Source: Bacteroidia bacterium (GTDB taxonomy: Bacteria; Bacteroidota; Bacteroidia; Flavobacteriales_D; JAUILH01). From it: a DNA stretch of 64,000 bases. Positions 31,582 to 31,626 of the stretch are shown piece by piece. The position numbers were made by a program, and so were the translations under genes. Positions within the stretch are counted from its first letter, which is position 1. Every line of letters begins with the position of its first letter. The stretch spans positions 4,744-68,743 of the forward strand of contig JAUILH010000002.1 of the NCBI GenBank assembly GCA_030433115.1. Direction: 5' to 3'. The notes beneath the pieces are model-generated. The model was not told where the DNA came from and did no database searches. It saw nothing but the letters and a program-made list of their open reading frames with translations.

Positions 31582-31626
31582 CCCTCACTGAAAACAGTGA
31601 TTTTTGTTAAGAAAACCATGATTTAT
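31582..31626 (+). promoter_or_regulatory. Recurrent intergenic motif, locus A (core GAAAACAGTGA at 31590-31600 plus a second half-site GAAAACCATGA 21 bp downstream)
   Basis: ccctcactGAAAACAGTGAtttttgttaaGAAAACCATGAttta shares 24 of 27 positions with 47208-47236. It has the same two-half-site layout as 36609-36655. Confidence 0.6.

Follow-up and report, generated by a model that had tools for sequence, protein, structure and literature searches.

A conserved palindromic motif upstream of secreted-protein genes in Flavobacteriales is a putative activator site

The DNA analysed here (the window) is a 64-kb stretch from a Bacteroidia bacterium whose relatives, judged by orthologue identity, are Crocinitomicaceae-like Flavobacteriales. 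The genes flanking the motif copies originally reported in it encode a MACPF protein, proteins of 1569, 811 and 374 residues that carry T9SS C-terminal domains, and an S41 peptidase. A TPR/His_kinase (LytS-type) sensor kinase and a Response_reg-LytTR regulator are encoded on the plus strand at 39382–41980 (called by domain match, the regulator lying at 41234–41980), and all of these gene assignments in the original prediction were confirmed. The motif, GAAAAMMGTGA, has four exact matches in the window (at 31590, 36616, 36668 and 47217) where 0.25 are expected, all four are on the plus strand as had been claimed, and four or more copies were present in none of 100 shuffled controls. The recurrence is non-random and extends beyond the 11-mer, in that the 25-mer TTCCCNCNCTGAAAANNGTGATTTT is present in three copies with at most two mismatches (31580–31604, 36606–36630 and 47207–47231; expected number 0.00), and a repeat finder independently put together the same three copies as its family D5. 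A scoring matrix built from nine sites returns only these three as strong sites in the window, with scores of 38–47 against a null maximum of at most 16. All of the motif sites are intergenic, in agreement with the predicted placement, and the composition profile around them has no island signature. A shorter copy that had been included in the family, GAAAAAGTGA at 25930, is present yet is not a member; we excluded this 10-mer because it lacks the conserved flanks and its matrix score is below threshold, and patterns relaxed to the same degree also match coding DNA.

Site A contains the full 25-nt motif at 31580–31604 (plus strand, matrix score 46.6), and its core TCACTG-AAAA-CAGTGA (31585–31600) is a perfect palindrome. 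The site precedes the MACPF start codon (31532, minus strand) by 47 nt. On the same strand a second, weaker unit, GAAAACCATGATTT, follows at 31611–31624, beginning with the half-site GAAAACCATGA at 31611 and giving a start-to-start distance of 21 bp. The MACPF gene (29805–31532, minus) has a −7-like box, AAAATTTG, at 31554–31561 on the minus strand, which starts 24 nt past the final G of CAGTG; this promoter lacks a −33 TTTG where one would be expected. Site B1, with the full motif CCCACTGAAAACCGTGATTTT at 36606–36630 (plus, score 39.6), is in the divergent region between the gene for the 1569-aa NosD-like T9SS cargo protein (31730–36439, minus) and that for an FG-GAP T9SS cargo protein (plus), 168 nt and about 200 nt away respectively; we place the true start of the FG-GAP gene at about 36831, since an identical database protein is 786 aa long. 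The −7 box of the 1569-aa gene, TAAATTTG (36581–36588, minus), is 23 nt after the B1 CAGTG. The second unit B2, GAAAACATGGATTT (36640–36653, plus; half-site GAAAACATGGA at 36640), comes 24 bp after B1 and has a borderline score of 14.6, and it is followed by B3, GAAAAAAGTGA (36668–36678, plus), in which the end of AAGTG is 22 nt from the FG-GAP −7 box TACATTTG (36700–36707, plus). Both the second half-sites at A and B and the minus-strand −7-like boxes were found where the original prediction had put them. Site C, CCCCTCTCTGAAAAAAGTGATTTT (47207–47231, plus, score 37.7), closely follows a 61-aa ORF and is 238 nt upstream of where the S41 peptidase gene starts (46969, minus); it does not show the −7 spacing of A and B. 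Other T9SS cargo genes in the window (2988–7718 and 21115–22149) have no motif.

The window contains further repeated sequences. A 131-nt element is present in two copies that are 84% identical (25656–25786 and 47628–47758, read on the minus strand), situated just downstream of tRNA-Val and tRNA-Arg and beyond the terminators that belong to these tRNAs. The element forms a long hairpin and an additional stem, in which four base pairs have changed in a compensatory manner between the two copies. It has no Rfam match, and one stretch of it, TTTGAGTGAGGGAATGG, is similar to the motif when that is read as its reverse complement. At 51182–51307, inside a 2391-aa ORF (50003–57178, minus), there is a tandem array of 12-nt period, probably a short peptide repeat.

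Searching for the strict 21-mer CYCWCTGAAAAMMGTGATTTT in 185,579 species, each represented by one genome, gave 25 matching stretches. Most are single matches in unrelated phyla, and several are coding, such as a GFLSENSDF stretch of carboxylases. Within the Bacteroidota there are three in a 4.5-Mb Parvicellaceae MAG (L007, L022 and L023) and one each in a Flavobacteriales MAG (L010), a Chitinophagaceae MAG (L015) and three Bacteroides species. This is a small sample obtained with an exact pattern, so conservation within the pattern is by construction, but these matches also share bases beyond it: L010 and L015 have the identical 25-mer ACCTCACTGAAAACAGTGATTTTT, and AAATCCCTCACTG is common to L007, L023 and site A. 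The motif is thus conserved across genera. Its core is a 6-4-6 near-palindrome, TCACNG-AAAA-CNGTGA, found in nine of nine independent sites, with CAC and GTG kept in both halves at all nine except in the left half of site C, and with these triplets one helical turn apart. The flanks are asymmetric, with CCC to the left and a T run (TTTT) to the right, and a weaker unit some 21–24 bp off often follows the core. Exact-pattern scanning of metagenome and viral contigs gave no new family members (the matches being mostly coding or chance, in other phyla), no blastn match of site A in plasmid or phage sequences had an E value under 0.4, and a literature search for the motif sequence returned primers only. 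The literature searched on LytTR regulators together with T9SS, and on T9SS regulons, yielded no known motif.

The predicted association with secreted proteins holds at seven of the eight Flavobacteriales and Chitinophagaceae sites, a small sample, in which a gene with a signal peptide or a T9SS domain is downstream of the motif. At L010 the motif is 97 nt before a gene for an FG-GAP_2 protein, and at L015, L022 and L023 the gene downstream encodes a secreted protein; the orientation of the motif relative to the nearest downstream gene is variable despite its asymmetric flanks. Phylogenetic footprinting of FG-GAP orthologues (L052 and L053) and MACPF orthologues (L054–L058), at about 50–55% identity, showed no upstream motif. 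We note that these MACPF orthologues (about 50% identity) neighbour defence-type genes, not T9SS cargo genes, including type I restriction-modification genes, an OLD-family nuclease with a UvrD helicase, and a bpMoxR/bpX cluster, and the MACPF family of 29805–31532 may have a role in defence islands.

A near-identical element, TTTCCCTCTGAAAAA[AC]GTGATTTTC, was observed in Opitutaceae (Verrucomicrobiota; L009, L013, L018, L019 and L026) and Solibacteraceae (Acidobacteriota; L014), where it precedes the start of a small gene by 40–47 nt and has the same orientation in these two unrelated GC-rich phyla. The gene product (...KPNAAFM.PVTP...) is taken, from sequence alone, to be of the SWIB-domain type. 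In the Opitutaceae loci a second unit follows, forming TGATTTTC-N7-GAAAATCA.

For the geometry of the motif relative to predicted promoters, sites were read in the orientation AAAATCACNGTTTTCAGTGAGGG and spacing was counted from the last G of CAGTG to a −7-like box, the boxes being called by consensus alone. The activator-type position that the original prediction proposed from sites A and B (24 and 23 nt) recurs at the Parvicellaceae locus L023, at 24 nt, and in Bacteroides, at 23 nt before the response-regulator gene, where the box is TTTCTTTG. The L023 box, AAAATTTC, is a near-match below the box-scan cut-off that was identified by eye. Boxes of the quality seen at A, B and Bacteroides have a background frequency of 0.006–0.008 per position. 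None of these four promoters (A, B, L023 and Bacteroides) has a −33 TTTG at the expected distance. The fixed spacing is seen in four to five of the nine independent sites and is absent at site C, L007, L010, L015 and L022. The window has five occurrences of the composite pattern AGTG[AG]-N20-23-[AT]AnnTTTG, as opposed to an expected 1.3, and the motif promoters account for three of them. In Bacteroides, the intergenic block of about 60 nt that separates kinase and regulator genes and contains the motif is better conserved than the coding DNA on either side.

The motif is a real, lineage-restricted cis-regulatory element, ordinary in kind but a new instance of that kind, and it is most likely an activator site in the promoters of secreted-protein genes. 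A Bacteroidota −7 box starts near −11 or −12, which would place the centre of the palindrome near −41.5, a class II activator position. We infer that a dimeric or oligomeric transcription activator probably uses the motif as its operator on double-stranded DNA. It would bind the palindrome centred near −41.5, with the inner half-site, at the best-defined sites, 23–24 nt upstream of a TAnnTTTG-like −7 box, and the bound regulator could stand in for the missing −33 contact and recruit RNA polymerase in a class II-type manner. The genes driven would be those for secreted and T9SS cargo proteins, namely the MACPF, 1569-aa NosD-like and FG-GAP proteins.

Several other explanations were weighed against an activator site. 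The inverted repeat followed by T residues could be a hairpin in RNA or DNA, serving on the plus strand either as a small intrinsic terminator or as the 3'-terminal part of a small RNA, with TCACTG and CAGTGA forming the stem; site A, L010 and L015 do have a perfect 6-bp stem and then a T run, site A (and no other) was flagged as terminator-like, and at L010, L015 and L022 the motif comes after the 3' end of a gene encoded on its own strand. However, the motif hairpins fold poorly, with energies of −1 to −7 kcal/mol (−6.7 at best, and −1 to −3.9 in five of the nine sites) in comparison with −20 kcal/mol for the real bidirectional terminator at 31650–31690, a strong terminator already in place 50 nt away. 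There is no stem covariation: the variant CACTG..CCGTG breaks the stem in four independent loci (window B, L007, L023 and Bacteroides) with no compensating change, so that the stable, compensated stem and following U run of a terminator or structured RNA are not seen. No plus-strand gene is upstream of window sites A–C, and Rfam at gathering and permissive thresholds yielded two tRNAs and noise with no match to the motif. Because the stem is weak and the sequence is conserved while the structure is not, we favor a protein-binding DNA site over an RNA hairpin, which seems extremely improbable. A dispersed repeat (REP- or MITE-like, or a recombination site) with no promoter-specific function would account for a motif that is short, palindromic, extragenic and on the same strand throughout the window, but copies are few, with no more than three strict copies in any representative genome scanned (three in the 4.5-Mb Parvicellaceae MAG and one each in two other MAGs) and none in viral contigs, phages or plasmids. 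There is also no transposase or recombinase nearby, the likeness between copies stops within about 28 nt, and an identical core across different Bacteroidota classes is unexpected for lineage-specific repeats, making this very unlikely. Alternatively, the conserved block might be a core-promoter element of the −35 type (e.g. CAGTGAGGGAAT) that is read by an alternative, ECF-type sigma factor and paired with an AAATTTG element 17–18 nt further on. The constant distance to the downstream box and the missing −33 TTTG would fit, as would the resemblance of GGGAAT to the GGAAC-type −35 elements that ECF sigma factors recognize. Nonetheless, at about 25 nt the palindromic block exceeds the length of a −35 element, both of its halves are conserved including the distal one, the downstream box is absent at half of the sites, and the motif is found in either orientation with respect to the nearest gene; we regard a sigma-factor element as improbable. 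Inspection by eye for an ECF-type −35/−10 pair in the forward orientation found no conserved −10, and the consensus sequences of CRP, FNR, LexA, Fur/Zur, cre, Rex and IHF sites did not fit.

One candidate for the regulator is the neighboring LytTR protein (41234–41980) put forward in the original prediction, which would bind phased GAAAAC..TGATTT repeats and activate the nearby secreted-protein genes. All three strong sites are within 8 kb of the two-component system, and characterized LytTR sites (AgrA, YpdB and BtsR/YehT) consist of two 9–11-nt repeats with 11–13-nt spacers and have no common consensus (PMC4847170), an architecture to which the two 11-nt motif units at A, B and L007 come close with spacers of 10, 13 and 10 nt respectively; site C, L022 and L023 have either a weak second unit or none. 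Against this, orthologues of the regulator (55–75% identity) were compared together with 10-kb flanks in five genomes, including Paracrocinitomix mangrovi and a Crocinitomix MAG, and although all five loci keep the kinase, the regulator and a convergent gene of 365–376 aa, none has the motif within 10 kb. The motif thus does not co-occur with its proposed cognate regulator across the genomes compared. Elsewhere it is found with no LytTR response regulator nearby, and the promoter of the window kinase gene itself has no motif. What is shared by six of six genomes is a different sequence, AACYACTCAT (GTYAACYACTCATYC), repeated at a 21-bp period upstream of the neighboring 365–376-aa gene (with the pair at about 11980–12015 in L059, 11985–12020 in L060, 4890–4925 in L061, 11985–12015 in L062 and 11975–12005 in L063). 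In the window these LytTR-type repeats, which do not belong to the motif family, lie within 43146–43216 on the minus strand and comprise AACTACTCAT (43183–43192) and GTTAATGACCATTC (43162–43175), about 21 bp apart, with a degenerate first repeat position (43202–43216). They are upstream of the 365-aa gene (ATG at 43119) and its −7 box TAAGTTTG (43146–43153, minus); the proximal repeat starts 39 nt before this box in the window and in L059, and the other genomes are in register.

The GTYAACYACTCATYC repeat contains the E. coli BtsR half-site ACCACTCA, the YehT/BtsR probe being ACCGCTTA-N13-ACCACTCA (PMC4847170), and BtsR is also the best NCBIfam match of the regulator at 41234–41980. The repeats at 43146–43216 are thus probably the operator of the local TPR-LytS/LytTR system and the adjacent 365-aa gene its target. 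With this BtsR-like footprint of its own, a link of the local regulator to the motif is not supported, and the LytTR protein at 41234–41980 probably does not bind the motif; the assignment made in the original prediction is one we strongly doubt. A LytTR paralogue encoded elsewhere may be the regulator, since LytTR binding would be compatible with the paired units at A, B and L007. We also note a 126-aa ORF (43116–43496, minus) that spans the LytTR-type repeat region. Its match to a SpoIIE/PP2C phosphatase domain is confined to the C-terminal portion of that domain, and the ORF is probably either the remains of a gene or a reading frame called too long.

Returning to the activator site, our best lead to the regulator is a NarL/GerE-type response regulator of a TPR-sensor two-component system, suggested by the position of the motif in two lineages. 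At L010 it is 6 nt after a gene whose product is the GerE-type response regulator of a TPR-HisKA_3 system. The Bacteroides motif overlaps the stop codon of a TPR-HisKA_3 kinase gene, about 50 nt before the gene for a GerE-type regulator, such that in both lineages the motif is within 60 nt of a regulator gene of this type. A 6-4-6 inverted repeat suits dimers of NarL/GerE-type proteins, and the presence of this core in nine of nine independent sites is consistent with such an operator, as far as sequence can indicate. No GerE-type regulator is encoded in the window, and there is none nearby in L007, L022 or L023. In two Bacteroides loci (L016, 3854–4264; L045, 7832–8239) the gene immediately upstream of the motif-bearing TPR-HisKA_3 kinase gene encodes a stand-alone LytTR-domain protein of 136 aa, and because it is present in only two of five assessable Bacteroides loci we have not counted it as evidence. 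The window kinase (39382–41241) and the Bacteroides kinase at 4386–6314 of L016 give weak partial matches to the FimS model through their TPR sensor regions, and their kinase cores and partner regulators belong to different families.

A broader proposal is that the motif is a conserved operator of a TPR-sensor two-component family, FimS/FimR-like with NarL-type output, which switches on large adhesin-like or T9SS-secreted proteins across Bacteroidota classes. We consider this unlikely on present evidence, but if true it would be the first phylum-wide regulon for surface-protein expression, spanning gut Bacteroides and marine Flavobacteriales. An even bolder form of the proposal would connect the motif with the near-identical element before the SWIB-domain genes of Verrucomicrobiota and Acidobacteriota.

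Very little is known of how environmental Bacteroidota regulate T9SS cargo and other secreted proteins, and the motif provides a defined putative operator, along with a predicted geometry for its promoters and a small set of candidate regulators. A separate and well-supported BtsR-like footprint has in addition been obtained for a Bacteroidota TPR-LytS/LytTR system. Neither the motif nor this footprint alters a concept.

Class II activator sites are centred near −41.5, as in the CRP/FNR-type arrangement of E. coli. The motif resembles these in being palindromic, with half-sites one helical turn apart. At the sites that have the −7 spacing, the distance to the putative downstream promoter element is constant, and the motif would overlap the place of the upstream element that these promoters lack. 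It departs from CRP sites (TGTGA..TCACA) in that its half-sites are reversed (TCAC..GTGA) and the promoter is of the Bacteroidota −33/−7 type. In common with LytTR sites, some motif sites have two GAAAAC..TGATTT units with a 21–24 bp period directly upstream of a promoter, but the best-conserved feature of the motif is an inverted repeat with a 4-nt spacer and not a 21-bp direct repeat, and the footprint of the adjacent LytTR regulator is separate, BtsR-like and different from the motif. Porphyromonas gingivalis FimR is a regulator of the LuxR/NarL type, and the FimR papers give no consensus with which the motif could be aligned. Its partner FimS is a sensor kinase with TPR (PMC11053733), and there are parallels in that TPR kinase systems are present at the L010 and Bacteroides motifs and the motif targets are surface or secreted proteins, although the window and L016 kinases score 64–66 bits as opposed to the NCBIfam FimS cut-off of 600. 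ComA is a NarL/FixJ-family protein of the GerE type, and its operator is a 6-4-6 inverted repeat with an extra half-site. The motif is similarly organized, with a 6-4-6 inverted repeat as its core and an additional half-site close by.
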